This document shows, in pieces, positions 3,220-21,726 of a DNA stretch of 64,000 nt (positions are counted from its first letter, which is position 1; every line of letters starts with the position of its first letter). Made by a program: the position numbers and the translations under genes. Origin of the DNA: Chloroflexota bacterium. GTDB lineage: Bacteria; Chloroflexota; UBA11872. The stretch covers positions 259 to 64,258 of the forward strand of contig CBDCOK010000001.1 in the NCBI GenBank assembly GCA_965219705.1. Reading direction: 5' to 3'. Below the pieces are notes generated by a model, which saw nothing but the letters and a program-made list of their open reading frames with translations, searched no databases and was not told where the DNA came from.

Positions 3220-3316
3220 GACATTGGCCGGCCGCGCCATTCGCATTCGAGAGCGCCAGGATGGCTCCTTCGACTACACTACTACTCGTGGGGGGTGAGA
3301 GAGAAAGGAACTACAA

Positions 3317-5216: not shown

Positions 5217-5661
5217 GTGGCCATCTTGTGGGGTTCCGGTCATACTCGCAGCATGAGGCGAGACGTGGAGTTGGAAGCCACCATCGTCGGAAAGTACAGC
5301 GCGGTAGCGCCGGTGTTGGACGAGCGTAGTCGCCGGCGGTGGGCAGCGGCCGAGTCGGCGGCGATTGGCTGCGGCGGCGACGCGCTGGTACACCGGCTCT
5401 TCTGCCACATCACGGCGAACTGGCGTGGCGCCCCGCTGACGACCTACGAGACCATCGTCGACCGCATCGGCGACACACGAACCGAGGCCGGGCTTCAGGT
5501 GCAAGCGGAACTCGACACCGGTCAGTACCCTACCGGCGTGACGGTGACTAAGTCGCAGATGGCCGCCATCGCGCTGGTTCCCGATGAGTTTCACGGCGAC
5601 TGGAACTACAAACTCGTCCCTCGATGAAGTTGGCAAATCTATATCGATCACTGTCCTAAGA
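5217..5661 (+). pseudogene. ISAzo13-family transposase C-terminal fragment plus right terminal inverted repeat
   Basis: C-terminus ...GLQVQAELDTGQYPTGVTVTKSQMAAIALVPDEFHGDWNYKLVPR matches the ISAzo13 C-terminal signature (FHGxWNYT). It is followed by the terminal sequence GGCAAATCTATATCGATCACTGTCCTAAG, which recurs at 48166 and 49125. Confidence 0.5.
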
Positions 5662-5885
5662 TCACGATGTGCTCGATCTCGTCGACGGTGATGGTATCCG
5701 CCGTCCGGTCGTAGAGCTTCGTCGTCTTCGGCGAGGCGTGCCCGGCGATCCGCTGCGCATGCTCGAGCGTTCGTCGTCGAGCGCCTCGCCCGCCCGATGG
5801 TGGGCCGGGACGTCGTGACGCTTGCCGCCCTTCTCGTGGAGCCTGAGCCACCCCCGGCTCTCCTGCTGGAAGTAGTCCGCCGCCT
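5648..5885 (-). pseudogene. Tyrosine recombinase fragment (middle to C-terminus), frameshifted
   Basis: ...LEHAQRIAGHASPKTTKLYDRTADTITVDEIEHIVI and, in another frame, DYFQQESRGWLRLHEKGGKRHDVPAHHRAGEALD. Both match the intact integrase at 41608-42594. Its 3' end abuts the ISAzo13-type inverted repeat. Confidence 0.6.
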
Positions 5886-6184: not shown

Positions 6185-6522
6185 TCACTCGGGATCCCTC
6201 CTGCCAGCAAGAATCGCGACCACGTTGACCACTGCCGTTGTAGCCTCAGTGCACAGGGCCGCGTCGCGAAAGGTCGCCGTCCGGCGATGCTGCAACGCAT
6301 TCGAAAAGGCGAGTGCCGACTTAGCGTGTCTACGCGCCTCTTCGTTGGCATGACCTGCTAATTCGACCTCGAGATATGCCTCCAGCATTCGCTTGGCGTC
6401 CGTGTCACCAGGCTGAACGCCATCTGTCGGAGGATGCAGTTCTGGTGTATAGACCTCCTGGGCAAGCGAGATTAGTGTCTCTCGTCCCAGAAGCCCAACC
6501 GTCTGAAACCCTTCTTCGTTGC
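6185..6522 (-). pseudogene. C-terminal half of a gene split by ISL3 copy 2 (N-terminal half at 8103-8462)
   Basis: The ORF translation ...RNEEGFQTVGLLGRETLISLAQEVYTPELHPP... continues the N-terminal piece across the 8-bp duplication (RNEG|...). The first ~16 aa of the predicted ORF are IS-derived (PHEFEE = inverted-repeat sequence). Confidence 0.5.
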
Positions 6523-8102
6523 GAATCTCCTCAAATTCGTGTGGGTAGCGGTGGCGCCAGCTCGATGCCTCCACAGCAGAGATACAGCATGGAGATGAGC
6601 GGTCCGTGCGAGTGGAAGCCGTAGGCGCGCCGCGCGATGACCCGCAGCTTGTTGTTGATCCCCTCGACCCGCCCGTTGGTCATCTTCGTGTCGAGGTAGG
6701 CGAGGATCCCCGCCGCGTGCTTCCGGACCGTCCGCGCCAGCTTGACGAACGGCGCCAGACGTGACCGCGCCGCCCAGTCCAGCCACTGGTCGAGCAGTTC
6801 GTCGGCCTCGTCGGGCTTGGCCTGCTCGAGGATCGTCGCCAGGTACTCCTTCAACTCGTAGGCGCGGTCCAGGACCCGGTTCTGCCGGCGCAATCGTGCC
6901 AGGCGTCGCGCTTCACCCGGCTTCAGGCGCGCCGGGTGCTTCAGCAGCGCATAGCGCGTCCTCTTGAGCACCTTGCCCGACGTCTTCCCCAGGCGGTGTT
7001 GCTCCGTGCGGCGGACCTCGTCGACCGCGTCGGCGGCCAGCCGCTCGACGTGAAATCGGTCGTAGACCACCCGCGCCTGCGGCACCCGCGCCGCCACCGC
7101 CTTGCGGTAGCTCGCCGCCAGGTCGGCCGTCACCAGTTCGATCCGGGCACAGCCGGCCGCTCCCAACAGGTCGAAGAATGTCCCCAGCGTTTCGGCGCTG
7201 CGCCCCGGCCCGGCCCAGACCACGCACCGGCGGTCATGGTCGACCACCACCGTCAGATAGTGGTGCCGCTTCCGATAGCTGAACTCGTCAATGCCGATCC
7301 GCCGCAGCCCGGCCAGCCGCGTCGAGTCCAGCCGGCGAGCCACCACCCGCTCGACGATGCCGCCGACCGCCGGCCACGAAATCCCCACCAGGCGACTCGC
7401 CGTCGTCCGGTCCGTCACCTGCGCCAGATAGGCCGCCAACTCCTCGAGCGGCGCCGTGAACGCGCTGCCGTGCGCCGCCCACGACACCTGCTCGACCCGA
7501 ACCCCGCAGCGACCGCACGATACCCGCCACGGGGCATACCGCAGCCACACCGTGACCCGACCCCACGGCACATGGCGCCACAACCGAGCTGGCTGCCGGT
7601 CGTAGCGCACCGCCCGGCGGCCGCACGCCCCGCACCGGGACCGACGCCACGACGGCCGCGCCGACACGCTCAACATCCCCGTCGTCCCGATGCGCACCTG
7701 CTCGACGTACAACTGCGTGACTCCCAGCAGTCGGCGTAGTAGTGTGGTCACACGCATGGGGCTGTCCTCCTCCTCATTGGTTGTCCTATTGCAACGCCAA
7801 TGAGAACAGGAAGCCCCTGCGTTTTCAATGACTTCCGTCGGCCGACGGGAGGCCGGCCAGCCCATCCCGCCGTAGACGCCCGCTGTCGGCGACACAACCT
7901 CTCGACCGCCCGGACGCTTCCGTCCAGCCCGGGCCGCAAGGCCCATAACTGCACCCTCAGCGGAGCGACGGTCGGCCTGTCACCCGACAGGGTCGCAGCG
8001 AAGCGGAGAACGCGCGCAGCGCGTTGACAGGCCGACCGTCCCGTAGCTACTCCCGGTCGCGCCCATCGACCTCAACCCACCCACACCTGTTTGAGGAGAG
8101 CC
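6523..8102 (-). mobile_element. ISL3-family IS, copy 2 (1580 bp), 8-bp duplication TTCGTTGC; transposase 6531-7757 intact
   Basis: Same transposase as copy 1 (471-aa ORF identical) and the same terminal inverted repeats. TTCGTTGC is found at 6515-6522 and 8103-8110. Confidence 0.85.
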
Positions 8103-8462
8103 TTCGTTGCGAGACGCCGCAAGGCGATTTCGAAGCTCGTCGACCGTCCGGTCTACCCGCGCCCAGCCCGTTGGTTGCGCCTCCTCGGCGTAACCGGCAC
8201 GAATTCGCCCGATAAGCGGATTGACGAGCTCGCTCACAAACGTCCGCCGAGACTGATAGCTGGGAAGATCCCCGGTACTCCACCGACCATACCAATCCCA
8301 GAGATCTCTGTACCTGATGGGGTTGTCGATATCCCGTTCAGCGAGCTCAGTCTCTAGCGCCGCGAACGCCTGCTGGTAACGTTCGTTCACATCGGCTATA
8401 CGTGGACCACCAGTTGCCACCGCGATCATGGTGCCTCGCAACTCCTCCAGCACCCCGATCAA
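8103..8462 (-). pseudogene. N-terminal half of the IS-disrupted gene (see 6185-6522)
   Basis: MIGVLEELRGTMIAVATGG...VDELRNRLAASRNEG, then runs into the ISL3 inverted repeat. Its start abuts ISL3 copy 3. Confidence 0.5.
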
Positions 8463-8466
8463 TTCC

Positions 8467-10047
8467 GAATCTCCTCAAATTCGTGTGGGTAGCGGTGGCG
8501 CCAGCTCGATGCCTCCACAGCAGAGATACAGCATGGAGATGAGCGGTCCGTGCGAGTGGAAGCCGTAGGCGCGCCGCGCGATGACCCGCAGCTTGTTGTT
8601 GATCCCCTCGACCCGCCCGTTGGTCATCTTCGTGTCGAGGTAGGCGAGGATCCCCGCCGCGTGCTTCCGGACCGTCCGCGCCAGCTTGACGAACGGCGCC
8701 AGACGTGACCGCGCCGCCCAGTCCAGCCACTGGTCGAGCAGTTCGTCGGCCTCGTCGGGCTTGGCCTGCTCGAGGATCGTCGCCAGGTACTCCTTCAACT
8801 CGTAGGCGCGGTCCAGGACCCGGTTCTGCCGGCGCAATCGTGCCAGGCGTCGCGCTTCACCCGGCTTCAGGCGCGCCGGGTGCTTCAGCAGCGCATAGCG
8901 CGTCCTCTTGAGCACCTTGCCCGACGTCTTCCCCAGGCGGTGTTGCTCCGTGCGGCGGACCTCGTCGACCGCGTCGGCGGCCAGCCGCTCGACGTGAAAT
9001 CGGTCGTAGACCACCCGCGCCTGCGGCACCCGCGCCGCCACCGCCTTGCGGTAGCTCGCCGCCAGGTCGGCCGTCACCAGTTCGATCCGGGCACAGCCGG
9101 CCGCTCCCAACAGGTCGAAGAATGTCCCCAGCGTTTCGGCGCTGCGCCCCTGGCCCGGCCCAGACCACGCACCGGCGGTCATGGTCGACCACCACCGTCA
9201 GATAGTGGTGCCGCTTCCGATAGCTGAACTCGTCAATGCCGATCCGCCGCAGCCCGGCCAGCCGCGTCGAGTCCAGCCGGCGAGCCACCACCCGCTCGAC
9301 GATGCCGCCGACCGCCGGCCACGAAATCCCCACCAGGCGACTCGCCGTCGTCCGGTCCGTCACCTGCGCCAGATAGGCCGCCAACTCCTCGAGCGGCGCC
9401 GTGAACGCGCTGCCGTGCGCCGCCCACGACACCTGCTCGACCCGAACCCCGCAGCGACCGCACGATACCCGCCACGGGGCATACCGCAGCCACACCGTGA
9501 CCCGACCCCACGGCACATGGCGCCACAACCGAGCTGGCTGCCGGTCGTAGCGCACCGCCCGGCGGCCGCACGCCCCGCACCGGGACCGACGCCACGACGG
9601 CCGCGCCGACACGCTCAACATCCCCGTCGTCCCGATGCGCACCTGCTCGACGTACAACTGCGTGACTCCCAGCAGTCGGCGTAGTAGTGTGGTCACACGC
9701 ATGGGGCTGTCCTCCTCCTCATTGGTTGTCCTATTGCAACGCCAATGAGAACAGGAAGCCCCTGCGTTTTCAATGACTTCCGTCGGCCGACGGGAGGCCG
9801 GCCAGCCCATCCCGCCGTAGACGCCCGCTGTCGGCGACACAACCTCTCGACCGCCCGGACGCTTCCGTCCAGCCCGGGCCGCAAGGCCCATAACTGCACC
9901 CTCAGCGGAGCGACGGTCGGCCTGTCACCCGACAGGGTCGCAGCGAAGCGGAGAACGCGCGCAGCGCGTTGACAGGCCGACCGTCCCGTAGCTACTCCCG
10001 GTCGCGCCCATCGACCTCAACCCACCCACACCTGTTTGAGGAGAGCC
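8467..10047 (-). mobile_element. ISL3-family IS, copy 3 (1581 bp), duplication TCAATTCC; transposase frameshifted (pseudogene, 8475-9702)
   Basis: One extra nucleotide (cgcccc-t-ggcccgg near 9150) splits the transposase into 344-aa and 235-aa ORFs. TCAATTCC is found at 8459-8466 and 10048-10055. Confidence 0.8.
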
Positions 10048-10281
10048 TCAATTCCTCATCGGTCACTGCCACTCCCTCCGCCTTCGCCAGCAGGTCGCTG
10101 TCACGGGTGCCAGCCACGACGAGCGCGTGCGCCGCGACGAGGCAGCCGCGAATCGGTTCGGATCCGGCATTCTCGCTGACATCGTACACGAGTAGCAGCA
10201 TGCGGAAGGTGTGGTGGGTTTCGTCGCCTGGTCCCTCCTCAACTGGACGCAGGCCATGGCGATCCGGTGTGTGAGCCTGGG

Positions 10282-10859: not shown

Positions 10860-11652
10860 CCCGCGTCATTGAATACGCCCGGTCTCTAAATCACGATGCG
10901 CTCGATCTCGTCGACGCTGATCGTGTCCGCCGTCCGGTCGTAGAGCTTGGTCGTCTTCGGCGACGCGTGCCCGGCGATCCGCTGCGCGTGCTCGAGCGTC
11001 CCACCGTTCGACAAGTACGCCGTGATCCCCGTCGCCCGGAACGTATGGCAGCAGGTCGACGCCGACAGTTCCGCCGCCGCCGCCCGACGCTTGATCATCG
11101 CCAGGGACGAGCAGCCGCGACAGCGCCCGCCCCGTCAGCCTCTGCCCCGTCGGGTCGACGCTCTGGAAGAGCGGCGCCTTCGCTTCGCCCGGCCCGGCCA
11201 CCTCGAGGTAGCGTCGAGGGCCTCGCCCGCCCGGTGGTGGGCCGGGACATCGTGCCGCTTGCCGCCCTTTTCGTGGAGCCTCAGCCACCCCCGACTCCCC
11301 TGCCGGAAGTAGTCCGCCCGCCGCATCGCGACGACCGCGCTCACCCGCGCGAAGCTGTAGAGCATGACCGACAGAAGCGCCCGGTCGCGAATGCCCGCGA
11401 GCGTCCTGGTGTCGATCGCCTCGAGCAGCCGGCGGGCCTCGGCCGGCGAGAGCACCGGCGTCGCGCCCTTCGTGACCACATGCTCGGCCCCCGGACTGCC
11501 GCCGCCGGGTTCACCGGGAGGAGCTGGCTGACGACGAGCCAGTCGCCGAGCATGCGGATGGCGGCCAGGTGCTGCTTGACCGTGGGCGCCGAGCCAGGGT
11601 GGCTCCGGATGTAGGCCGCCACGTGCAGCGGCGAGACCGTCTCGAGCGCTAG
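10860..11652 (-). pseudogene. Tyrosine recombinase, degenerate copy (frameshifted, N-terminal part cut off by the IS1634 insertion; remnant continues at 13744-13812)
   Basis: Fragments in three frames: C-terminus ...HTFRATGITAYLSNGGTLEHAQRIAGHASPKTTKLYDRTADTISVDEIERIVI; middle ...RDRALLSVMLYSFARVSAVVAMRRADYFRQGSRGWLRLHEKGG; N-terminal part ...LETVSPLHVAAYIRSHPGSAPTVKQHLAAIRMLGDWLVV. After the IS, ...RTRAAYGRAVGQFLAWCEARGL. Confidence 0.6.
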
Positions 11653-13743
11653 CCCATGTTTACCAAGTTGACCGGCGATTTTGCCCTTTTTGGCGGTATT
11701 TTGAGGCGTGCGCACCCGCAACTTGTTGATTTTAAATGATCGGGATTTGGCAGAACGCGATGTAGTGCCATAATCGTATCGGTGTCCTTGCCCCGCGGTA
11801 GTACACCCCGCTATCGTGGCAGCATGTTCATTCGGCGCACCCAGACCCGCCGGACCGCTGACGGCAAGCCCTATTTCTCGCACCGCCTGGTCCACACCGA
11901 ACGCCTCGGTCACACCGTGTGTCAGCGCACGCTGCTCAACCTCGGGCGCCACTTCGACATTGCCCAGGCTGACTGGCCGCTGCTGTGCACCCGCATCACC
12001 GACGTACTCAACGGCCAAGCACCGCTGATGGCCGACTGCCCGCCCGCCGTCGAGCAGGAAGCGCAGCGCATCGCCGCGCAGTTGCTCGCCCGCGGTGCCG
12101 AGGCGAGCATGCCGACCGGCGCAGCGGCCGACATCCAGCGGGTCGACGTCGACTCGTTGCGCCTGGTCCGCCCCCGCAGCATCGGCGTCGAGCAGTTGGG
12201 TCTGTGGGCGCTCGACCAGGTCGGCCTGCCGGACTTGTTGGCCCGCCTGGGTGTCAACGGCGCGCTGCGCACAGCGGCGGCCGGCGTCATCGTCGGGCGC
12301 ATGGCCCACCCGGCCTCCGAGCGCGAGACGCACCGCTGGCTGCAGCAGCGCAGCGGCCTCGGCGAGTTGCTCGGCGTCGACTTCGAGACCGTCGGCGCCA
12401 TGCAGCTCTACCGCGCCTCGGACCAGTTGGTGAAGCATCGCGACGCGATCGAGGCGCACCTGTTCGACCGCGCCCTCGGGCTCTTCGACCTGCAGCCGAC
12501 CGTCACCCTCTACGACCTGACCAACACGTATTTCGAAGGCGAGGCGAGCGAGCAGCCGCAGGCCAAGCGCGGGCACTCGAAAGAGAGGCGCGGCGATTGC
12601 CCCTTGCTGACCCTCGGTCTGATGCTCGATGCCAGCGGCTTCGTCCGCCGCTCGAAGGTCTTCGCCGGCAACGTCCGCGAACACCGCACCCTGGCCGGCA
12701 TGCTCGACGCGCTCGACGCGCCGGCCGGCGCCCTCGTGGTCGTCGACCGCGGCATCGCTACCGAGGCTGCCATCAGCTGGCTCCGCGAGAACCACTATCG
12801 CTACCTGGTCGTCAGCCGCGAGCGTCACCGGCAGTTCGACGCCGACGCCGCCGTGTCGATCCAGACGCAGTCCAAACAGATCGTGCATCTGCACAAGGTG
12901 GTCGCCACCGACCCCGATGAGGTGCGCCTGTACTGCTACTCCGAGGAGCGGGCCGAGAAGGAACGCGGCATCGTCGAGCGTTTCGCCACCCGCTTCGAGG
13001 CCGCCCTGACCAAGCTCAACGACGGGCTGTCACGGCCGCGCGCCCACAAGCGCGTCGAACAGGTCTGGCAGCGCATCGGGCGCCTCAAGGCCCGGCATAC
13101 CCGCGTCGCCGCCCACTACCAGATCAACGTCACCGCCGACGAGACCGGCAACACGGCCGTCGCCGTCACCTGGACCCGCCGCCCGCAGGACGGCTCGATG
13201 CTCACCCATCCCGGCGTCTACTGCCTGCGCAGCAGCGAGACCGACTGGGACGAAGATACGCTCTGGCGCACCTACACCACGCTCACCGACGTCGAAGCCG
13301 TCTTCCGTTCGCTCAAGTCCGAACTCGGCCTGCGACCCATCTACCACCGCAAGCCGCGACGCGCCGACGGCCACCTGTTCATCACCGTCATCGCCTACCA
13401 ACTCGGCCAGCTCATCCGAACCCGCCTGCGCGCCCACGGCAGCCACGCCTGTTGGACCACCCTCAGACGTCTCGTCGAAGGTCAGCAGCGCGTCACCGCC
13501 ACCTTCCGACGGCCCGACGGCCGCACCCTGCACGTGCGCACCGCCACGCAACCCGAACCCGAGCAGCGCGCCGTCTACGACGCCCTCGGCGTCGACCCGC
13601 ACCCAAGCGGCGTCCGCAAGACGATCGTCTGACCCACCGACCGCCGCCCGCTTGGCACACGGTTGTAGTGCCACTCGAGCCGTTTCATCAGCGTAAGTCG
13701 TTGATTCTAAAATGCCTTGGATCTACCGTTGGTAAACATGGGT
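11653..13743 (+). mobile_element. IS1634-family (IS4 superfamily) IS, ~2.09 kb
   Basis: Terminal inverted repeats CCCATGTTTACCAA (11653) and TTGGTAAACATGGG (13730-13743). It interrupts the integrase pseudogene. Confidence 0.75.
11824..13632 (+). CDS. IS1634-family transposase (602 aa from the ATG at 11824)
   Basis: Long DDE transposase: MFIRRTQTRRTADGKPYFSHRLV...YDLTNTYFEG...VVDRGIATE...RSLKSELGLRPIYHRKPRRADGHLFI. The architecture is typical of IS1634/ISMac5-like transposases. Confidence 0.75.
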   Translation: MFIRRTQTRRTADGKPYFSHRLVHTERLGHTVCQRTLLNLGRHFDIAQADWPLLCTRITDVLNGQAPLMADCPPAVEQEAQRIAAQLLARGAEASMPTGAAADIQRVDVDSLRLVRPRSIGVEQLGLWALDQVGLPDLLARLGVNGALRTAAAGVIVGRMAHPASERETHRWLQQRSGLGELLGVDFETVGAMQLYRASDQLVKHRDAIEAHLFDRALGLFDLQPTVTLYDLTNTYFEGEASEQPQAKRGHSKERRGDCPLLTLGLMLDASGFVRRSKVFAGNVREHRTLAGMLDALDAPAGALVVVDRGIATEAAISWLRENHYRYLVVSRERHRQFDADAAVSIQTQSKQIVHLHKVVATDPDEVRLYCYSEERAEKERGIVERFATRFEAALTKLNDGLSRPRAHKRVEQVWQRIGRLKARHTRVAAHYQINVTADETGNTAVAVTWTRRPQDGSMLTHPGVYCLRSSETDWDEDTLWRTYTTLTDVEAVFRSLKSELGLRPIYHRKPRRADGHLFITVIAYQLGQLIRTRLRAHGSHACWTTLRRLVEGQQRVTATFRRPDGRTLHVRTATQPEPEQRAVYDALGVDPHPSGVRKTIV

Positions 13744-13811
13744 TAGGCCCCGGGCCTCGCACCAGGCCAGGAACTGCCCGACGGCCCGCCCGTAGGCCGC
13801 CCGCGTCCGCC

Positions 13812-14365
13812 AGGCCGCCCACGACGCCGGTGAGGAGCCGCCGGCCGGGCCGCTCACCCGCCAGGCCATCGAGGAGCTCGAGCGGCTGCGGGCCGACTTC
13901 CTCGGTATGGTCAGCCACGAGCTGCGCGCGCCGCTGACCTCCATCAAGGGTTCGGCCGCCACGCTGCTGGAGACCTCGTCGGACCTGGACCCGGCGGAGA
14001 TGCGCGAGTTCTTCCGGATCATCGCCGACCAGGCCGACCACATGCGCGGCCTCATCAGCGACCTGCTCGATGCGGGACGCATCGACTCGGGCACGCTCTC
14101 GGTGGCCCCCGAACCCTCGGAGCTGGCGGCCCTGGTCGACCGCGCGAGGAACACGTTCCTGAGCGGCGGCGGGCGGCACACCGTGCTCATCGACCTCCCG
14201 CCGGCGCTGCCCCCGGTGATGGCCGACCGGCGGCGCATCGTGCAGGTCCTCAACAACCTCTGCTCCAACGCCGCCAGGCACGCTCCCGAGTCCTCCCCCA
14301 TCCGGATCGCCGCGCGGCGCGACGGGGTGCACGTCGCGGTCGCGGTCTCCGACCAAGGCAAGGGC
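13812..14365 (+). pseudogene. Sensor histidine kinase fragment (HisKA + HATPase_c), both ends missing
   Basis: ...AIEELERLRADFLGMVSHELRAPLTSIKGSA (H-box) ...RRRIVQVLNNLCSNAARHAPESSPIRIAARRDGVHVAVAVSDQGKG. Flanked on both sides by ~50-bp direct repeats of integrase sequence (13759-13810, 14367-14418). Confidence 0.55.
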
Positions 14366-14567
14366 AGGCCAGGAACTGCCCCACCGCCCGACCGTAGGCC
14401 GCCCGCGTCCGCCGGTTCGCGATCCGCGCCGCGAAGAACTCGAGGAACTTCCCCACCGCCGCCGGCCCCGCGTCGACGACGAGCCGCGGCAACGCGAGCC
14501 CGCCCCCCTCGACGGCCGCCGGGCGCGGAGCGGTCATCCGCTCGACCAGCGCCACCTCTTCGCTCAT
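14366..14567 (-). pseudogene. Tyrosine recombinase N-terminal fragment
   Basis: MSEEVALVER...LVVDAGPAAVGKFLEFFAARIANRRTRAAYGRAVGQFLA, then breaks into histidine-kinase antisense sequence. Confidence 0.55.
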
Positions 14568-15190
14568 CGCGTCACCCCTCCCCCGCCGCCGGCCGCCTCT
14601 TCCCCGCCGACGAGCGCCTCGAAGCTCTCGTAGTCGTTCGTCAGCGCCTGGGCCAGCGCGAAGAGCCGCCCGACGGCCTCCTGCGCCCCGCCGAAGCGGA
14701 CCTCGATCCGGTCGGGCTCGACCGACACGCCCGCGGGCAGCCCCGCCAGGCGCGCCTCGAGCGCCTCGACGGGAACCGCCACGCGGATCCCGGTGAGCCG
14801 GGCCCGGCGGATCTCGGTCACGACCTTTTCGCGCCGCGTCTCCTCGTGGCGGAAGGCCGCGCGCTTCCGCTGCCTTCGGAGCTGGCGGAGGAGCTCGGCG
14901 CGCGGGAGGGTCAGCAAGTGCCCGGTCCGGCCGGCCCCGAAGGCCGTCATCAGCTGCGCGGCGCGGACCTTCGAGACACCGAAGAGGCGTTCGAGGTCGC
15001 GGCGCGTGAGGAGGTCCTGGTCGAGGTCCTCGAGCTGCTTGATCGCGTCCGGGATGGCGAGCAGCCAGCGCGGGCGGGCGGGCACGCCTCTACCCTGCCA
15101 ACCCTCGGCGGGTCTTGCGGTTGGGAGGATCTGCGGCGGCCACGGTGTGCGCCATGTTAGTGAACGGTCGTTCACAAGGCAAGGCGGCAC
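14564..15190 (-). CDS. Integrase-associated helix-turn-helix protein, Xis-like accessory (start uncertain)
   Basis: ...IKQLEDLDQDLLTRRDLERLFGVSKVRAAQLMTAFGAGRTGHLLTLPRAELLRQL... The same protein precedes the intact integrase at 42595-42987. The stop overlaps the integrase start (ATGA). Confidence 0.45.
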   Translation of the reverse strand: MPPCLVNDRSLTWRTPWPPQILPTARPAEGWQGRGVPARPRWLLAIPDAIKQLEDLDQDLLTRRDLERLFGVSKVRAAQLMTAFGAGRTGHLLTLPRAELLRQLRRQRKRAAFRHEETRREKVVTEIRRARLTGIRVAVPVEALEARLAGLPAGVSVEPDRIEVRFGGAQEAVGRLFALAQALTNDYESFEALVGGEEAAGGGGGVTR

Positions 15191-15218
15191 TGGTACTCGG
15201 TACGTAGGGCATAAAGCG

Positions 15219-15240
15219 GGTTATGGGATGGGCGGCGAGG
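15219..15240 (+). repeat. Direct repeat GGTTATGGGATGGGCGGCGAGG (right flank of DGR cassette; partner at 19363-19384)
   Basis: 21 of 22 nt identical to 19363-19384, same orientation. The pair brackets TR, RT, avd, target A and its promoter. Confidence 0.5.
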
Positions 15241-15432
15241 ACAACACGCCGCCAAAGAAAAGGCTCGCCGCTACGAAACGGCGGCCGGAGCCCGTCGCCC
15301 CCCCGTAGGGACCAGGACGGGCCCCGGCCGTGACGCCGCCGCGCTCATCCGACGGCGCCGGCTCATCATGACCGGCCCTGGACGCTCCCACGCTCGCCCG
15401 GCGCGGCCGTGACCGCGCCGGCTCCGGCAGAG

Positions 15433-15562
15433 GAGCGTGCTCGAAACGCGAAAACCGTTGTTGTCGTTCCGGTTGGCGGCGCGGTTCCTGTTGCGCGCGC
15501 CAGGCTGGAGGTTCTCGGCGTTGTTGTTCCACGAGCCGCCGCGCAGCACGCGACGGCCGGGG
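15433..15562 (-). repeat. DGR template repeat (TR)
   Basis: Minus-strand sequence CGTGCTGCGCGGCGGCTCGTGG-AACAACAACGCCGAGAACCTCCAGCCTGGCGCGCGCAACAGGAACCGCGCCGCCAACCGGAACGACAACAAC-GGTTTTCGCGTTTCGAGCACGCTC. In the target reading frame it would encode RGGSWNNNAENLQPGARNRNRAANRNDNNGFRV. Differences from VR-A lie almost entirely at TR adenines. It starts ~8 nt after the RT stop. Confidence 0.8.
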
Positions 15563-15567
15563 GCCGG

Positions 15568-15948
15568 TCAGGCCCCCGGGACCGGTTGCCCGCGAGGCGC
15601 GAACCACCCGTCCCGGAAGATCGCGCGGCGCAGACGCCACGTGTCGGCGTGCGCCGCATGCGCCACCCAGGCGCGAACCCGCTGCTCCACCTCGCTTCGC
15701 GTCACCGTGCCCGCCCGCCAGCGGTCGCGCAGCCCGCGCAGCCGGTTGCGGAAGCGGCGCACGTTCGCCTCCGGCAGCCGCCGACGGCCGCCCGGCCGCA
15801 GCTCGAACCCGAGGAACGTCGCCGGCGACGACGTCGCCGCCACGTGCGTCTTCGCCGGGTGCAGCGACAGCCGCCGATGCGCCAGAAATGCAGCCACGCG
15901 GCCGCGCCACGCCTCGAGCCGCACCGGGTCGTCGGCGAACAACGCGAG
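15568..15948 (-). CDS. DGR reverse transcriptase, exon 2 (C-terminal thumb region)
   Basis: ...(F)ALFADDPVRLEAWRGRVAAFLAHRRLSLHPAKTHV...FLGFEL...NVRRFRNRLRGL...VEQRVRAWVAHAAHADTWRLRRAIF has the typical DGR RT C-terminal organisation. It continues the YVDD motif of exon 1 across the intron. Confidence 0.75.
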   Translation of the reverse strand, partial: LALFADDPVRLEAWRGRVAAFLAHRRLSLHPAKTHVAATSSPATFLGFELRPGGRRRLPEANVRRFRNRLRGLRDRWRAGTVTRSEVEQRVRAWVAHAAHADTWRLRRAIFRDGWFAPRGQPVPGA

Positions 15949-16598
15949 GTGAGTCGCCCGGGGGAATCTCACCCCCGGGCGCTCGCAGAACTGTACGTGA
16001 ACGTCTCCGCTCATACAGCTCCCATCATCCAGCCGCCGGCGTGAACGGCTTCGCGTGGCTCGACGGCTCCTCCCGCGCGCGCGGTTGACCGTCGGGACAC
16101 GCTGGATGACGCGACCCCTTTGCTCCATCGAGTTTCCCCGACTTCATCGCTCGTACGGGTGCCTCGCATCGGACCTCTCATCCTTGGGGGTCGGCCCCTT
16201 GGATTTCTCCCTTCGCATCGAGGCGACAGGTTCCCACGTTCCGCACAAGGGCCTGGTGCAGGGTCACGCCACCTTTATGCCGGGTGCCGCCCAGCCAAGC
16301 TGCAGGCTCCCGCTGGACTCGTCCCGGGTTAACGACTCGCCCCGGTTTCGACACCGTCCCTACGCTTTCGACACGTTGCCGGTGGTTCATCCTCTTCGTC
16401 TCCCTGCACCCTACCTGACGCGGTCAAGCCGCGCCGTTTCCGTGACGCTTACCACCTCGGCTCTTGACCGAGGCAGCGCACGGCGGTTTGAAGCCTCCCC
16501 CTGCCGGGCGGCTCCGAGGGGCCTGCCCTCATCCCTCGTGCAGCATGGCTGCAGCTAGGTGGCCATCTCGGCCTCCTTTCCGCGCCTTCGTGGCGCAC
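15949..16598 (-). mobile_element. ORF-less group II intron (~650 nt) inserted in the DGR RT gene
   Basis: 5' end GUGCGCC (Ll.LtrB-like GUGCGCCC). Domain V GAGCUGUAUGAGCGGAGACGUUCACGUACAGUUC (plus 15988-16021) has the AGC triad, a GAGA tetraloop and a CACGUAC bulge. Domain VI GAGCGCCCGGGGGUGAGAUUCCCCCGGGCGACUC has a bulged A at -6. 3' end ...ACUCAC. Domain V-to-3'-end spacing is 73 nt. No ORF is present. Confidence 0.75.
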
Positions 16599-17304
16599 AA
16601 TCGTCGACGTAGCGCACATACGGCGCGCCGAGGGCCTCGGTGACGAAGTGGTCGAAGCGGTCGAGGTAGACGTTGGCGAAGAACTGGCTCGTCAGGTTGC
16701 CGATCGGCAGACCGCGCCGCCGCTCGTACGGCGTGAACAGGTCGTCGCCCGGATAGTAGATGTGCACCGGCTCCTGCGGGTTCGAGCCGTCCACGATCCG
16801 GTCGAGCACCACCAGCGTCCGCCGGCACGCGATGCGACGCCGGAGGTCGGCCTTCAGCACCTCGTGGTCGATGGCCGGGAAGTAGCGGAAGACGTCGCCG
16901 CGCAGGACCCAGCGGTATCGGTCGCGCAGCCGCTCGTAGCGCGCCACCGCGCGGTGCGTCCCCTTGCCCGCGCGGTTGGCGTAGCTGTGCGCGATGAACC
17001 CCCGCTCGAACACCGGCGCGACCACCGAGTGCACCGCGTGGTGCACCACCCGGTCGCGGAACGGCGCGGCCGAGATCATTCGGCGCTTCGGGTCGCGGAT
17101 CTCGAACGAGACGAAGCCGCCCGGCCGCCATGTCCCCGCCCGCAGTTCGCGCTCCAGCCGCAGGACCTCCGGCTCCAGGTTCGCGAGAAACCCCGCCGGC
17201 ACCGGCACCCGGCGCTTACCCGCCGCCGCACGCTGGGCCGCCGCGCACAGCGCCTCGAACGTCGCGATTCGCTCGAACAGCCCGTCAGCCCTGCGCCGCC
17301 TCAT
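16599..17304 (-). CDS. DGR reverse transcriptase, exon 1 (ATG at 17304; fingers and palm through YVDD)
   Basis: MRRRRADGLFERIATFEALCAAAQRAA...FRDRVVHHAVHSVVAPVFERGFIAHSYANRAGKGTHRAVARYE...GLPIGNLTSQFFANVYLDRFDHFV...APYVRYVDD. The IGNLTSQ motif is DGR-specific. The ORF then reads into the intron (DDCAPRRRGKEAEMAT*). Confidence 0.8.
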
Positions 17305-17602
17305 CCGCCTTCCGCCAGCCCCCGACGAGCCGGCCGGTCTCGTCGAGGACGCGCGCCGCGTGCTCGTAACGGCGCTCGTCGAGGTGCCCGAGATCCTTCG
17401 CGAGCCGGCACAGCAACCGCAGCTTCTCGATGCCCAGGTTGGCCGCCTGCAGGTGCCGGCGACGGTCCCGCGAATACGTCGCCTCGACCAGCCGCTCCAG
17501 CACGTCGAGCGCCGTCGCCTGCAGCCGATCCCCCAGCAGAAACTTCTGGCGGCGGGGAAACTTCTCCACCGTCGGCACCAGCCACAGCACGAACCCGTAC
17601 AT
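17285..17602 (-). CDS. avd: Avd-like DGR accessory variability determinant (four-helix-bundle family), ~105 aa
   Basis: MYGFVLWLVPTVEKFPRRQKFLLGDRLQATALDVLERLVEATYSRDRRRHLQAANLGIEKLRLLCRLAKDLGHLDERRYEHAARVLDETGRLVGGWRK follows the Avd / 23S-rRNA-IVS four-helix-bundle pattern (..FPK.eRf.L..ri...a....). It overlaps the RT start by 20 nt. Confidence 0.65.
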   Translation of the reverse strand: MYGFVLWLVPTVEKFPRRQKFLLGDRLQATALDVLERLVEATYSRDRRRHLQAANLGIEKLRLLCRLAKDLGHLDERRYEHAARVLDETGRLVGGWRKADEAAQG

Positions 17603-17743
17603 CGACTCCAGCGCGGGACCCGTCCGACGCCCGCCCCGGCCACGTCCGTCCGACGACGACACCATCCCGAATCCTGGGGGGCAACGCCCGGGCAACGCCC
17701 CCCAGACCCCCCTGAAAGATGTAAAGAGCTGAAGGGTCAAGAG

Positions 17744-19279
17744 TTAATCCAGCGTCCTCGACACGCGAAAACCGACGTCGGCGAGCCGGTAGGCGGCGCG
17801 GAGCCAGTCGCGCGCGCCAGGCCGGAGGGAGCTGTCGTACCACGAGCCGCCGCGCAGCACGCGATGGCCGCAGTTCCCCTCCCAGTTCCCCTCCCAGCAG
17901 TCCGACGTCCACTCCCACACGTTCCCAACCATGTCCGACAGCCCCGCCGCGTTCGCGCCGTGGCCGCCCACAGGGCACGTTCCATCAGGACGCGACCCCA
18001 GACCCAACCGGTCGCACCCGGGCTGAGAACCGGTCGCCGCTCGCGCCCACTCCGACTCCGTCGGCAACCGATAAGTCGCGCCTGTCGTCCGGCTCAGCCA
18101 CGACACATACGCCTGAACGTCGTCCCAGCTCACGCACGTCACAGGATGACGGTCCGTCTGCGGAAAGCCCGGGTTGCGCCACGAATCGCCATCGCCGAGC
18201 GTGGTGCAATCGCCGACAGCCCCAGACCCCGTCGCCGAGGCGAACGCACGATACTCCCCCACCGTCACCTCGTAACGGCCCAGCGCCAGAGCGCCGCCGG
18301 GAAGCACCACCATCTCCGGACAATCGTCGCAGTCACGGAACGCGTCCCCAGGACGATACCCAGGGTCCGAGACGCCACCGAACCCGGGCGAGCTCGCGCC
18401 GGAGACCCGGGAACCGGCTGCCGGAGAACCCGTCGCGCCCGACGGCCGACCGGACGCGCCCGCCGGAACACCCGGCGACGAACGAAGGGCCGACAGCCGA
18501 TTCTCGGCCAGACGGCGAAACACCCCGTTCGGGAACTGCTCGAGATACGCCTCGAAGTCGGCTGCGTCGCTGCTGTTCACCACCGACTGCCAGAACACCG
18601 TCTCCTGCTCCGCGCTCGCCGCAGGCGACGGCGGAGACGACGGCTGCTCACGCGCACCCGCCGCGGGCCGTTGCCGGAACGTCGTCTGGCCAGGCCCGGA
18701 AGACCGCAGCGCCGCCACCGACGAGCCATCCAGATAGCCCGTCGCGCGTGAACCCCGCGACGATTGCCAGCCCCGGATCGCGGCACGCGTACGCGGGCCG
18801 AACATCCCGTCCGCGCCACCCGGGTCGAACCCCGCCGACTGAAGCCCCCGCTGAACCTCCTGACGAGCCGCACGGTCCAGGCCAAGCCCCTCCTCGACCA
18901 CCGGGCCATTGCAGCCCCACACCCGAACGACGCACCCAGAACCGCCGCCTCGAGAGCTGCACGCCGACAGCGCCGCCTGCTGAGCCGCGGACGCCGAGCC
19001 ATACGATTCCGCCCAGCCCACCGCCGTGCTGTCCGAGTCCTGGTCCGCCGCATATGCCGCGCAACGCGCGAACGTCAGAACCACAGAGCAGTTCGAGCCG
19101 CACTCCGACAGCGCCCGCCGCTGCGCCGCGCCCGCCGTCTCGTAGTCCACCGCCCAGCCCCACTGGTCGCCCTGCCGCTCGTCGACCGCCAACGCGCCCA
19201 CCGGCTGCGCAAACGCTGCACCCGCCGAACTCAGCATCACCCAAACCACGAGCGAAGACCAACGGTGTGCCTGCATCAA
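17744..19279 (-). CDS. DGR target protein A: signal peptide, DUF4189-like Cys domain, peptidoglycan-binding domain, FGE-sulfatase (C-type-lectin-fold) domain with C-terminal VR
   Basis: 511 aa; MMQAHRWSSLVVWVMLSSAGAAFAQP; VGALAVDERQGDQWGWAVDYETAGAAQRRALSECGSNCSVVLTF...; GFDPGGADGMFGPRTRAAIRGWQ; ...HPVTCVSWDDVQAYVSWLS..ATYRLPTESEW...GNVWEWTSDCW...RVLRGGSWYDSSLRPGARDWLRAAYRLADVGFRVSRTLD. Confidence 0.85.
   Translation of the reverse strand: MMQAHRWSSLVVWVMLSSAGAAFAQPVGALAVDERQGDQWGWAVDYETAGAAQRRALSECGSNCSVVLTFARCAAYAADQDSDSTAVGWAESYGSASAAQQAALSACSSRGGGSGCVVRVWGCNGPVVEEGLGLDRAARQEVQRGLQSAGFDPGGADGMFGPRTRAAIRGWQSSRGSRATGYLDGSSVAALRSSGPGQTTFRQRPAAGAREQPSSPPSPAASAEQETVFWQSVVNSSDAADFEAYLEQFPNGVFRRLAENRLSALRSSPGVPAGASGRPSGATGSPAAGSRVSGASSPGFGGVSDPGYRPGDAFRDCDDCPEMVVLPGGALALGRYEVTVGEYRAFASATGSGAVGDCTTLGDGDSWRNPGFPQTDRHPVTCVSWDDVQAYVSWLSRTTGATYRLPTESEWARAATGSQPGCDRLGLGSRPDGTCPVGGHGANAAGLSDMVGNVWEWTSDCWEGNWEGNCGHRVLRGGSWYDSSLRPGARDWLRAAYRLADVGFRVSRTLD
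17747..17869 (-). repeat. DGR variable repeat VR-A (cognate to TR 15433-15562)
   Basis: Aligns with TR over ~125 nt. The ~24 differences at TR-adenine positions give AAC to TAC/GAC/AGC/CTC/GTC/GCC codons. There is a 6-nt indel, four other non-A changes (gcc-tcc, gtt-gtg, agc-agg, ctc-ctg) and an identical 3' GGTTTTCGCGT segment (IMH-like). Confidence 0.8.
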
Positions 19280-19362
19280 CCTTCTCCTTGGATCTTTGCC
19301 CTCGAGCTCGGAGAGGAACGTATCACAGGGCTCGGAAATAACCTGCCCGCGTCACAACCGCA

Positions 19363-19384
19363 GGTTATGGGATGGGCGGCGGGG
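19363..19384 (+). repeat. Direct repeat GGTTATGGGATGGGCGGCGGGG (left flank of DGR cassette)
   Basis: See 15219-15240. Confidence 0.5.
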
Positions 19385-19519
19385 CGGAAACACGACGACG
19401 GCCCGGCGCGGGCAAACCAGGCTGGCCGATCGGCGAGCGTCGTGACGGCCCGCTTGGAGCGCTCGCGCAGGTCCGCGGGCAGCACCGGCGGTCTGTGCGG
19501 CCCTCAGAGACCAGGATCC

Positions 19520-19586
19520 GGTGACTGTATTGGCGCAAACGCGTATCGGTATATATACTCATGTACTCAGAGTAATTTATGAGTAA
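19520..19586. promoter_or_regulatory. AT-rich region with ATATACTCA(T/C)(G/A)TACTCA repeats upstream of parA (candidate par operator/centromere); related copy at 20455-20480
   Basis: tatatactcatgtactcagagta before parA and catatactcacatactcaaaag after parG. It is AT-rich in a 68% GC context. Confidence 0.3.
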
Positions 19587-20225
19587 GTGATGATCATTTC
19601 GTTTCTAAACCAGAAAGGTGGCGTGGGGAAAACGACGCTTGCCCTCCACGTGGCCGTGGCGCTGCAGCTCCAGGGCCGGGGGCGTGGCCTTGTGGTCGAT
19701 GCGGATCCGCAGGGCTCCGCTCTCGACTGGCAGGCGCAGCGGGCCGAGCCTTCCCCCGTGCCGGTGGTCGGGATGCCGACGCCGACGCTACATCGCGACG
19801 CACGCGCGATCGCGGATACGGACTATCTGGTGATCGACGGGCCGCCGCGGATGGACGTGATCGCGAAATCGGCCATTGCGGCGAGCGACCTAGTGTGCAT
19901 TCCGGTCCAGCCGTCGCCGCTCGACGTGTGGGCGGCGGGCGAGATCTTCGATCTGGTCGAGGAGTGCCGGGTGCTGAAGCCGAGCTTGGCCGTCCGGTTC
20001 GTAATCAACCGGGCGGTTCAGGGGACGGTGCTGGCCGCGGAGGTCGCGGCGGCGCTCGAGAAGTTCAAGACGCCGGTGCTGCCGGTTGTGCGGAACCGCA
20101 CGGAGTACGCGAAGGCGATCCGGGCAGGGAAGACGGCGATGGAAACGCAGCCGCGCGGGCGGGCGGCCAGGGATATCGAGGTGCTGACTGACGCGGTGTG
20201 GAACGCGGCACGGGGGGAGCCATGA
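19587..20225 (+). CDS. parA: ParA-family partition ATPase
   Basis: MMIISFLNQKGGVGKTTLALHVAVAL... is a deviant Walker A (KGGVGKTT) in a ParA/MinD-fold protein of 212 aa. Confidence 0.85.
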   Translation: MMIISFLNQKGGVGKTTLALHVAVALQLQGRGRGLVVDADPQGSALDWQAQRAEPSPVPVVGMPTPTLHRDARAIADTDYLVIDGPPRMDVIAKSAIAASDLVCIPVQPSPLDVWAAGEIFDLVEECRVLKPSLAVRFVINRAVQGTVLAAEVAAALEKFKTPVLPVVRNRTEYAKAIRAGKTAMETQPRGRAARDIEVLTDAVWNAARGEP

Positions 20226-20446
20226 CGGACTGGGGCGCGAAGCCGCGACCGCGGTCGACGACGCATCTGCTGGATACGTTCGTGGGCTCGGCGGGGAAGC
20301 CGAAGCGGGGCGGGGAACACAAGCGGCTGAACGCGATGATTCCCGCTGCCCTGCACCAGCGAATGAAGGTAGCTTGTGCGAAGGCCGGAACGGACATGAC
20401 GACGGTCCTGATCGAGCTGCTCGAGAAGCGGTTTCCCGACGAGTGA
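20222..20446 (+). CDS. ParG-like ribbon-helix-helix partner protein
   Basis: Start overlaps the parA stop (ATGA). KRLNAMIPAALHQRMKVACAKAGTDMTTVLIELLEKRF is an RHH fold, like ParG/CopG. Confidence 0.5.
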   Translation: MTDWGAKPRPRSTTHLLDTFVGSAGKPKRGGEHKRLNAMIPAALHQRMKVACAKAGTDMTTVLIELLEKRFPDE

Positions 20447-20877
20447 ACATCAGCGCATATACTCACATACTCAAAAGAGAGGATGCCGCTGAACAGCTCC
20501 GCCTAGTGCGCCGTGGTTCCCCCTGCCTCGCTACCCCTCGCAGCACGACCGCCGTGTTCGGGCTCGCAGGGTCCGGCCACCCCGCGACCGGTAGCCCCCT
20601 GATGCCGGCGAATCGTCGATGCCGATCGGCCGTCCTCCTGCAACCTCGCTACCTACGTAATTCGCCAGTTCGCCCGTGTCACGGCGGAGGTTCGAGAAAT
20701 CGCCAGCACAGGGCCGCTGAGCGCGCCTAGCGGTCAAGTCTGAGCAGCCGGGGAGCGGCGAGCAACGGCGTGATATCCTGTGAACGTAGAAAACGCGTCC
20801 GTACAGACGAACACCCGGTGCTGCGAACACCGGGCGTCGAAGGTCGGCGGGCGCGCGGGCGATGAGGGCGCCCACGC

Positions 20878-21726
20878 ATGAACAAGTTTACCCCTACACC
20901 CGAATCCGATTCAAGACCACCACCCGTCGAGACGGCAGGCGCGACCGCGCCGGCGCTGGCGTACACCAACCCGCAGCCGCGGCTGCCGCATTCCGAGGCC
21001 TCGCCGCCGGAGCAGCCAGAGACGTTCATGCGGCGGGCCCGGCGCGTGCGGCTTGGGTCGCACCGACTGAAGCTCTGGTACCTCGCGCTGTGCACGTTCG
21101 GCCGGGCGTGGGTGCGGGGTGACGACGTGCTTGAGATCGGTATCAAGCAACGGTCGCTCGCCGGCGAGCTTGAGACGGGCCTGAACCGGGTGTCGAAGGT
21201 GCTCGCGGAGTTGCGGGACACCGGCCTGGTGCACGTGTCGAGGAGCAAGTACCACAGCGTGATCCGGATCTTCCTGACGCCGCAAAACTGGGCAGATACC
21301 CCCGGAACGGGGGTATCTGTGGAAGCCATCCTGCCGCTAGATACCCTCGACACAGGGGTATCTGGAAATCGAGCTACCCCCGAAATAGGGGTAGCAAGTA
21401 CCCCCGAAACAGGGGTAACCAATGTTTCTAGATCTCTTTTGGACGTACAAGCTGCTGCTGCTGACGTACTTCGTACTCCGGAACGGCCGGCGGGTCAGAC
21501 TCGCCGCCAGCAGCAGCAGCGAAATCAAGAACGGCTCGACAAACGGTTCGAGGGTCTGTTTGCGGCGATCGCGGCGCGGGCGCGCGAGCTGGGCATGGAG
21601 TACGACGAGGCGGATGAACGGCGGCGGCTCAAGGCGGAGGAGATCGGCGTCGACGAGCTGCAGGCACTCGCGGATAGACTCGCAGACGAGATTCAGGAGC
21701 GGCGGCGTGGCCGCCGAAGGCGATGA
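20878..21726 (+). CDS. Putative replication/partition-associated winged-helix protein (Rep-like); true extent uncertain because iterons lie inside the ORF
   Basis: MRRARRVRLGSHRLKLWYLALCTFGRAWVRGDDVLEIGIKQRSLAGELETGLNRVSKVLAELRDTGLVHVSRSKYH is a winged-helix-like fold. The downstream ORF portion is built of DNA repeats (TPGTGVS/DTGVSGN/TPEIGVAS/TPETGVTN). Confidence 0.35.
   Translation: MNKFTPTPESDSRPPPVETAGATAPALAYTNPQPRLPHSEASPPEQPETFMRRARRVRLGSHRLKLWYLALCTFGRAWVRGDDVLEIGIKQRSLAGELETGLNRVSKVLAELRDTGLVHVSRSKYHSVIRIFLTPQNWADTPGTGVSVEAILPLDTLDTGVSGNRATPEIGVASTPETGVTNVSRSLLDVQAAAADVLRTPERPAGQTRRQQQQRNQERLDKRFEGLFAAIAARARELGMEYDEADERRRLKAEEIGVDELQALADRLADEIQERRRGRRRR
21296..21420. repeat. Four tandem ~19-bp palindromes TACCCCCGAAAYAGGGGTA (iteron/operator-like), ~30-bp spacing
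   Basis: tacccccggaacgggggta, taccctcgacacaggggta, tacccccgaaataggggta, tacccccgaaacaggggta. Confidence 0.5.

Follow-up and report, generated by a model that had tools for sequence, protein, structure and literature searches.

The stretch of DNA analysed here (hereafter the window) comprises 64,000 nucleotides of contig CBDCOK010000001.1 (positions 259 to 64,258, forward strand) from the Chloroflexota assembly GCA_965219705.1. It is a plasmid-like mosaic with several insertion sequence (IS) copies and five paralogous target genes of a diversity-generating retroelement (DGR). The DGR lies on the minus strand between two copies of a short repeat, at 15219 and 19363, and consists of target gene A, avd, a reverse transcriptase (RT) gene with an intron and a template repeat (TR), to which the variable repeats (VRs) of the targets correspond. 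The repeat copy at 15219 overlaps a dif-like site that precedes a recombinase module, and the subject of this analysis is whether the DGR was inserted at that site. The features of the region, including open reading frames (ORFs), are as follows.

15219-15240, minus strand: repeat copy 1, attR-like; left arm and first 2 nt of the spacer of an intact dif-like site
15241-15419, minus strand: non-coding 'hairpin region' between TR and site; strong GC hairpin, then a terminator-like hairpin with a T-run (15283-15266)
15434-15559, minus strand: TR; matches VR_A (17751-17870), VR_B (31329-31452) and VR_C (49624-49743) in self-BLAST
15568-17250, minus strand: DGR RT gene (RVT_1; ORFs and Pfam), split after YVDD by a group II intron
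~15940-16555, minus strand: ORF-less group II intron in the RT gene (Rfam RF01999 at 16530-16413, RF00029 at 16023-15948)
17285-17600, minus strand: avd (bAvd; Pfam PF22296, E = 7e-17)
17744-19279, minus strand: target A (ORF; Pfam DUF4189, PG_binding_1, FGE-sulfatase), with its VR at 17751-17870
19280-19362, minus strand: leader of target A, putative left end of an inserted segment; terminator-like hairpin (19364-19346) directly after the repeat
19363-19384, minus strand: repeat copy 2, attL-like hybrid; same left arm and 2 nt of the spacer, then unrelated DNA
19587-21726, plus strand: parA, parG and a rep-like gene (Pfam), the plasmid backbone beyond copy 2; 91-93% identical to contig L018, introduced below

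The repeat is an exact 19-mer, GGTTATGGGATGGGCGGCG, present at 15219-15237 and 19363-19381 on the plus strand in direct orientation. Over 22 nt (15219-15240 against 19363-19384) the copies, 4144 nt apart, agree at 21 of 22 positions, which bears out an earlier reading of this DNA made from the letters alone (the sequence-only reading) that had reported near-identical 22-mers in the same orientation here. These two are the sole matches to GGTTATGGGATGGGCGGCG in the window even when up to three mismatches are allowed (0.03 expected), and two matches were obtained in none of 100 shuffles; by our calculation, about 3e-6 shared 19-mers would be expected between two 300-nt flanks at the base composition of the window. 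The flanks on either side, taken as 40 nt and as 200 nt, align no better than shuffled sequence, so that the repeat is a short island with sharp edges. Extension of the repeat to about 40 nt was considered and dropped, as CGTGTT recurs but the flank alignments stay at the level of shuffles. A small minus-strand gene that would have the motif as its 3' end and terminate in 'GVP-stop' was likewise considered and rejected, the ORFs that end at the TAA not being conserved. Inspection of the sequence at 15241 and 19362 revealed no terminal inverted repeats.

Between the repeats lies a complete DGR, with RT, Avd and an adenine-biased TR/VR pair at the 3' end of the target; 15 of the 19 mismatches between TR and VR_A fall on TR adenines, in addition to a 6-nt indel. 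The segment 15241-19362 codes only for the target, Avd and the RT, besides carrying the TR and the ORF-less group II intron, and a survey of ORFs and Pfam domains detected no recombinase or transposase genes in it. The hairpins at 15241-15419 come from a terminator scan and from folding (z-score -2.2), and an Rfam search of this region gave no match. Three target paralogues match the single TR at their 3' ends (A 80%, B 75%, C 70%), and VR_B and VR_C differ from the TR at many non-adenine positions.

A dif-like site, its recombinase module and an empty counterpart

The repeat becomes intelligible from the module to its left, which was compared at 11 loci: the A locus of the window and 10 comparison loci (L009, L011-L013, L015-L020), among them circular plasmid-like contigs of 33-56 kb and one 5.7-Mb chromosome. 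The components of the module in the window are given below.

15208-15228, minus strand: complete dif-like core; minus strand TCCCATAA-CCCGCT-TTATGCC, plus strand GGCATAA AGCGGG TTATGGGA
15154-15182, minus strand: predicted module promoter TTGCCT-17-TAACAT, read from the sequence and conserved in the 11 loci
14564-15085, minus strand: gene of a 173-aa partner protein, orphan family (1056 homologues, no family match)
10889-14567, minus strand: A-locus Xer-like recombinase pseudogene (tblastn pieces, self-BLAST)
41611-42594, minus strand: D-locus Xer-like recombinase, uninterrupted, 328 aa, 90% identical to the L015 protein

In the 11 loci the site is an imperfect palindrome, CCCATAA-N6-TTATGSS, with two arms in partial dyad, and the 7-bp dyad is perfect in L011, L019 and L020. 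The string TCCCATAAC-N5-TTATG is invariant in 11 of 11 independent metagenomic loci, amid intergenic DNA that varies. CATAA-N6-TTATG occurs once per module and at one extra place in L018, and nowhere else in about 240 kb, where base composition would lead one to expect about 0.01 matches (our calculation). The 19-mer of the repeat consists of the left arm of this site, the outer 10 nt of that arm and the first two bases of the centre. The extra palindrome of L018 (CATAATGTCCTTTATG, 1928-1943) lies 14 nt upstream of the gene for a 532-aa tyrosine recombinase, whose nucleotide identity to the module recombinase is about 68%; the presence of a second palindrome beside so distant a recombinase gene suggests that a wider recombinase family uses sites of the CATAA-N6-TTATG type.

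The dif consensus is GGTGCGCATAA TGTATA TTATGTTAAAT. With it the site shares only the inner pentamers CATAA/TTATG, which we take to be those of E. coli dif, and the 6-nt spacing; the outer arms and the centre differ. A serine-resolvase half-site was also entertained (CGTCCAATA, resembling TGTCYNNTA) and rejected, as no resolvase is linked to the site in the comparison loci and a tyrosine recombinase is always present.

The site stands about 25 nt upstream of the module promoter, at a spacing that is constant in the 11 loci. The promoter consensus across these loci is TTGCxT-17-TAACAT, and a stricter promoter scan did not call the promoter at 15154-15182. Its spacer is filled by a 16-nt palindrome, GTGAACGACCGTTCAC (minus strand, 15160-15175), which occupies the same position in the 10 other loci and is likely to be an operator separate from the dif-like site. 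Public metagenome assemblies contain 1056 homologues of the 173-aa protein (78-94% identical among the matches listed); searches with this protein of Pfam, NCBIfam and PHROG, and of PLSDB, IMG/VR and JGI metagenome contigs, found no match. Its AlphaFold2 model (mean pLDDT 62) has an N-terminal helix-turn-helix-plus-hairpin arrangement, and a fold search with the protein returned nothing below E = 0.1 (best E = 0.18); a winged helix at the N-terminus is possible on this model. The recombinase scores 108 bits with the XerD model (cut-off 330) and 100 bits with the XerC model (cut-off 335); being below both cut-offs, it is Xer-like rather than an orthologue. At the A locus its gene is broken by a 553-nt insert, an IS4-like element (transposase at 11782-13632, DDE_Tnp_1) and a frameshift. 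The 553-nt insert is flanked by a 49-nt direct repeat (13763-13811/14365-14413, 94%) and contains a histidine-kinase-like fragment. At the D locus the partner gene is interrupted at 43014 by a Tn3-family terminal repeat, and a third fragment of a recombinase module is found at 5660-5877.

Further evidence on the origin of the repeat pair comes from contig L018. The closest homologue of the window's ParA (96% identical) is encoded on this contig, where the order of genes is recombinase (328 aa), 173-aa protein, site, parA, parG and rep-like gene, with no DGR. Two blocks of blastn homology cover this arrangement: L018 5757-6636 corresponds to window 14365-15233 (85% identity), and L018 6619-7826 to window 19360-20540 (91%), the latter match extending to 21780 at 93%. 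The blocks overlap by 18 nt, and the overlap falls on the single copy of the site in L018; window 15238-19362 is therefore an indel at the site, either an insertion here or a deletion in L018. When the three sequences are compared, L018 runs with the flank on the parA side of the 19363 copy as far as TCCCATAACC and from there with the flank on the module side of the 15219 copy, and the switch between attL and L018 lies 2 nt into the N6 centre. On the minus strand the 19363 copy reads ...GTGTTTCCGCCC CGCCGCCCA TCCCATAACC TGCGGTTGTGACGCGGGCAGGTTATTT..., with a degenerate right arm (TTGTG at 7-nt spacing); the repeat is followed by a terminator-like hairpin and then by the leader of target A, a leader (19280-19362) that is missing from both L018 and L009. 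By eye, the DNA to the right of this copy looks like the Tn-Y repeat, but the idea that it is a degenerate Tn3-family terminal repeat was abandoned, as this DNA forms the terminator-like hairpin and lacks the ACGCTAAG inner end and the likeness is not anchored. Judged by their sequences, the repeat pair and the single copy in L018 show the pattern of attL, attR and attB, and this comparison with an empty site (same backbone, one site, no DGR) lends support to the att-like character that had been proposed for the pair.

The two copies are nevertheless not equivalent. The sequence-only reading had the repeats bracket the DGR cassette as its boundaries. They do enclose it, but the DGR does not end at the 15219 copy, which lies 195 nt beyond the TR and belongs to the neighbouring recombinase module, whose site is present in loci without a DGR. 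The region 15241-15419 is common to L009 and to two loci devoid of a DGR, L013 and L015, and for this reason too the 15219 copy is not a DGR boundary. The homology of L013 and L015 to the window covers the module and continues to 15408-15419, where it stops about 15-25 nt before the TR. Nor is bracketing by site copies a rule of the family, since two copies were found only in the window, and each of the 10 comparison loci has a single copy within the DNA compared.

To the left of the site the loci fall into at least six unrelated flank classes: the terminator region, the parA side, an avd remnant (L016), a Tn3 fragment (L017), the flank of L012, and that of L019 and L020. This clustering of different flanks suggests either repeated exchange at the site or a defined end of the module there. 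L009 is 89-93% identical to the window and collinear with it through target, avd, RT deletion, TR, terminator region, site and module, and has another target gene where the second copy of the site would be. The deletion in L009 corresponds to window 17284-15901, that is, the 5' part of the RT gene and the intron.

The outer 10 nt of the left arm vary among the loci and follow the clade of the module, so that the agreement of the two window copies over 19 nt is due to copying or to a very close relationship rather than to constraint. Both window copies carry the outer patch of clade 1, as do the A-locus module, L016 and L017; at 19363 this patch is GCCGCCCA, and its clade-2 equivalent (L018/L012, D-type) is GCCTA. 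Two clade-1 copies fit an insertion into a clade-1 site.

Proposed insertion at the site and competing explanations

The reading that we prefer, with a probability of about 55%, is that the repeats are one half of a dif-like site and that the 4.1-kb DGR was inserted there by conservative recombination catalysed in trans. The core TCCCATAA-N6-TTATGSS would be the cognate site of the module formed by the 173-aa protein and the Xer-like recombinase. The copy at 15219 would be an intact site that has kept its native place, upstream of the promoter of the module, and the 19363 copy a hybrid junction in which the same left arm is followed by the leader of target A and a degenerate right arm. The inserted segment, itself without a recombinase, would comprise the target A leader, target A, avd, the RT gene with its intron, the TR and the 180-nt terminator region. 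It would have entered through a putative circular intermediate, the recombinase of the adjacent module presumably acting in trans, in the manner in which integrative mobile elements exploiting Xer recombination (IMEX) enter dif. The junction of the circle would read hairpin region, CGCCGCCCATCCCATAACC, TGCGGTTGTGAC, and that of the empty site parA flank, left arm, CGCTTTATGCC. The outcome would be one functional site (attR-like, 15208-15228) and one crippled site (attL-like). With no proper right arm at attL and only a pseudogene for the recombinase at the A locus, the insertion is probably now fixed, with some possibility of mobility left by the intact D-locus paralogue.

Several observations weigh against an insertion of this kind. 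The terminator region next to attR is present also at sites without a DGR and may be native to the module instead of forming part of the cassette. Across the 11 loci, homology of the left flanks ends 0-12 nt to the left of TCCCATAAC and not in the N6 spacer, which makes the position of the crossover ambiguous. The right arm of attL can be aligned only with a 7-nt spacer. No second copy of the site was found in L009 within the 4.3 kb examined upstream of the site that adjoins its DGR, and an exact search of JGI metagenome contigs for the circle/attL junction gave no match. Finally, identity between L018 and the window is 85-93%, and their left arms disagree at 5-6 of the 10 outer positions; L018 is best regarded as an orthologous empty site, not the direct progenitor.

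The strongest of the alternatives, itself unlikely, is a fusion of replicons, in which a single crossover between the site of a parA-type plasmid and a secondary site upstream of target A joined this plasmid to another one with DGR, site and module. One junction of the cointegrate would then be the 19363 copy, and the reciprocal junction would have been lost to the Tn3-family insertion at 43015. The window does contain two directly oriented modules (the A locus and the D locus, 41611-43014) besides the fragment at 5660-5877; the partner-gene region of L018 is nearer to that of the D locus (90.4%) than to that of the A locus (86.5%), which in turn is closest to the DGR-linked L009 (91.1%); and the DGR adjoins the site in L009 as well, with an avd remnant in L016. 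Such identities and the shared direction of the two modules would suit a cointegrate of two plasmids. However, the left arm at 19363 carries GCCGCCCA and not the GCCTA expected of an L018/D-type site, and the 3' part of the recombinase gene of L018 is equally far from the A copy (91.8%) and the D copy (92.6%). The A copy, being a pseudogene, may simply have diverged faster, and the reciprocal junction is not observable.

Less probable still is a process independent of the recombinase, whereby slippage or recombination at short homologies deleted the DGR in the L018 lineage or duplicated DNA here, the palindrome being incidental. Slippage deletion, too, would leave an indel between short direct repeats, of which the shorter allele keeps one copy, and the region is full of IS and Tn3 rearrangements. 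Such a process gives no account of the origin of the two copies, of a right boundary lying 2 nt inside the centre of a site that does not vary among 11 loci and has an Xer-like recombinase linked to it, or of the clustering of many independent left-flank junctions at this one site; moreover, 19-22 nt is short for RecA-dependent recombination.

We consider it improbable that the repeat is a shared operator through which a regulator, for instance the 173-aa winged-helix-like protein, co-regulates the module and target A. Both copies do stand upstream of minus-strand genes (whose start codons are about 130 nt and about 85 nt away), the distance of the full site from the conserved promoter is constant in the 11 loci, and the partner protein may hold a winged helix, although the model is weak and the fold matches non-significant. 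Yet only half of the palindrome is present at 19363, the outer 10 nt of the repeat are not conserved among loci, so that their identity here points to copying and not to constraint, and the GTGAACGACCGTTCAC palindrome within the promoter spacer is a better operator candidate. The relatives of target A in L009 and L010 lack the motif upstream, and regulation would leave the empty-site relationship unexplained.

A chance match of a GC-rich 19-mer is effectively refuted: in a scan of species-representative genomes, a set that does not include the source genome, GGTTATGGGATGGGCGGCG does occur at 8 loci in diverse phyla, all of them chance matches in coding regions (GYGMGG) with unrelated flanks, but the expectation of ~3e-6, the absence of pairs in 100 shuffles and an empty-site allele that coincides exactly with the repeat stand against it.

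A broader and doubtful extension of the preferred insertion reading is that module and site are a widespread, undescribed capture platform of plasmids in uncultured high-GC bacteria, for which a whole DGR would be one cassette. The differing left flanks of the 11 loci (DGR, avd remnant, Tn3 fragment, parA side, terminator region with methylase or other genes) would be the captured cargoes. If this were so, the platform would be comparable to an integron or to pdif, and DGR-driven hypervariation would move between plasmids as a 4-kb unit. Whatever its role, the analysis reveals an abundant module of recombinase, partner and site, with more than 1000 metagenome homologues, none in PLSDB, and a partner protein without a family assignment.

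The motif in the paralogue leaders and the plasmid surroundings

The sequence-only reading had also linked the repeat to a core, GTTATG(G/C)GACGCC, in the leaders of the target paralogues B, D and E and past a fragment of E. The core is exact at 29706 (GTTATGCGACGCC) and at 44748 and 55975 (GTTATGGGACGCC), but not at 55405, where GTTATCAGACGCC has two mismatches; the reported spacing of about 190 bp agrees with the 187 nt that separate the motif from the start codon of B. The 13-mer pattern, with up to two mismatches, is weakly enriched in the window (8 matches, 3.7 expected), and the 9-mer TCC(C/A)ATAAC occurs five times, always on one strand, where base composition predicts about 0.26 occurrences (our calculation). 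These matches belong to a conserved element of about 35 nt, GGCG TCC(A/C)ATAAC SSCC.. TMCGTYRACC, here called type 2, with the following copies.

44732-44760, minus strand: type-2 element of the D leader, GGCG TCCCATAAC GCCCACTACGTTGACC
29690-29718 (B) and 55389-55417 (E), minus strand: paralogous copies in the same duplicated leader
3668-3696, minus strand: further type-2 element, GCG TCCAATAAC GGCCGATCCGTCAACC
55975-55987, minus strand: truncated element 'past E'; a Tn3-family 38-bp terminal repeat (55974 downwards) directly follows TCCCATAAC-C

The homology of the B, D and E leaders starts at 29637, 44677 and 55340, 66-69 nt before the motif, which thus lies inside a leader duplicated with the paralogues, and its copies in B, D and E were inherited together, not acquired independently. 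The type-2 element resembles the dif-like site in its 9-mer and in a stretch GCCC(A)CTACGT, has neither the spacer nor the right arm, and with respect to its gene faces the opposite way from the copy upstream of target A. The view that the related motif is the same site recurring at cassette boundaries thus does not hold: it is a separate element of an inherited leader. The copy past the E fragment is indeed present, although not as an independent boundary site, as it is cut by the Tn3-family terminal repeat, the same end as at 43015; the position of this end beside a TCCCATAAC copy may simply reflect a preference of such transposons for a local AT-rich patch. Type-2 elements occur also in L009 (5885) and L010 (2984 and ~19870), and none was found in L011-L020; they were found only on replicons with this family of DGR targets.

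Mobile elements are abundant elsewhere in the window. A complete small Tn3-family transposon (51412-55129) encodes TnpA (971 aa) and TnpR (204 aa) between 38-bp terminal repeats, GGGTACCGACACC...ACGCTAAG; an extra copy of its tnpA end lies beside paralogue B (32202-33653), and the 173-aa gene of the D locus has received an insertion of a second, truncated Tn3-family element (43015-44677). Three copies of a 1.6-kb IS that encodes a 471-aa transposase are more than 99.6% identical (1635-3226, 6519-8103 and 8460-10052), two in tandem and one inverted. Downstream of paralogue C an ORF (49308-49613) is avd-like and, over 103 nt, 91% identical to the avd of the A cassette (17483-17585), so that paralogue C may be the remnant of a second DGR. 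A 644-aa minus-strand ORF (39352-41286) contains nine tandem repeats of 102-105 nt (39828-40734), which we take to be of the ankyrin type. Exact look-ups of the window's ParA and target proteins returned no identical record, and a search of PLSDB with DNA and protein of the window matched only fragments of the group II intron.

Comparison with known systems

The nearest parallel to the proposed insertion is provided by IMEX such as CTX-phi, VGJ-phi, TLC-phi and the gonococcal genomic island (GGI). Sites of the dif type have partly dyad-symmetric arms around a central region of 6-8 bp in which strands are exchanged, and VGJ-phi and the GGI are identical to dif through one arm and part of the centre, the other arm being divergent (PMC5357621); integration of CTX-phi is described as irreversible (PMC5357621; PMC6744903). 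As in IMEX, an element without a recombinase gene resides in a dif-like site of which an empty allele exists, one junction is good and the other has a divergent arm, and the identity comprises one arm and part of the centre. Unlike the chromosomal dif, served by host XerC/XerD and FtsK, the site described here is plasmid-borne, between parA and its own recombinase module, the recombinase is far below the XerC/XerD cut-offs, and the cargo is a complete DGR instead of a phage.

In the proximity of recombinase and site the module resembles single-recombinase systems. The xerS gene adjoins its own site, difSL (PMC5357621). The module described here shares with XerS/difSL and XerH/difH, and with plasmid resolution systems (cer, psi; Cre-loxP; ResD-rfsF), the linkage of gene and site, the imperfect palindrome and, usually, one site per replicon; it differs from them in the sequence of the site and in an additional, obligatory-looking partner gene of no known family. 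The conserved region of about 180 nt on one side of the core in several of the loci recalls the accessory sequences of cer and psi. In contrast to a pure resolution site, the left flanks differ sharply between loci, as at an insertion hot spot.

Plasmid modules bounded by Xer-type sites are known as the pdif modules of Acinetobacter plasmids (PMC6449649, PMC13141974), and elements of the IS1202 family are found beside pdif sites (PMC10132070), much as a Tn3-family end abuts a TCCCATAAC copy in the window. The pdif sites, however, are complete 28-bp XerC/XerD sites, inverted, used by the host XerCD and present in many copies per plasmid, whereas here one complete site and one half-site stand in direct orientation with a plasmid-borne recombinase. 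An integron likewise combines a recombinase gene and an adjacent site with recombinase-less cargo bounded by short copies of a core. Nevertheless, the recombinase scores only 26.7 bits with the integron-integrase model (cut-off 265), GTTATGG does not fit GTTRRRY (T at a purine position), there is no folded site resembling attC, and transcription of the cargo runs towards the recombinase module instead of away from it. A transposon with a target-site duplication differs more deeply, given that inverted repeats and a transposase are absent and that 19-22 nt is much longer than the 5 bp of the Tn3 family.

The known cases of DGR mobility are DGRs carried inside large phages or integrative and conjugative elements (ICEs), and the movement of DGRs that diversify bacterial proteins is poorly understood. 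No account of a DGR inserted as a small recombinase-less unit at an Xer-like site came up in the literature searched, which is no proof of absence. DGRs borne by ICEs of Bacteroides have been shown to transfer, and the mobility of DGRs whose targets are bacterial proteins has been called relatively unexplored (bioRxiv 10.1101/2024.11.15.621889). Like these, the DGR described here is associated with mobile DNA; unlike them, it is not a passenger in an element of 50-100 kb, the differing unit being little more than the DGR itself (4.1 kb) at a recombinase site. Two related plasmid backbones thus differ essentially by the DGR, which is positioned in the site of a recombinase with att-like junctions, and if the segment is mobile, targeted hypermutation would be exchangeable as a small cassette.

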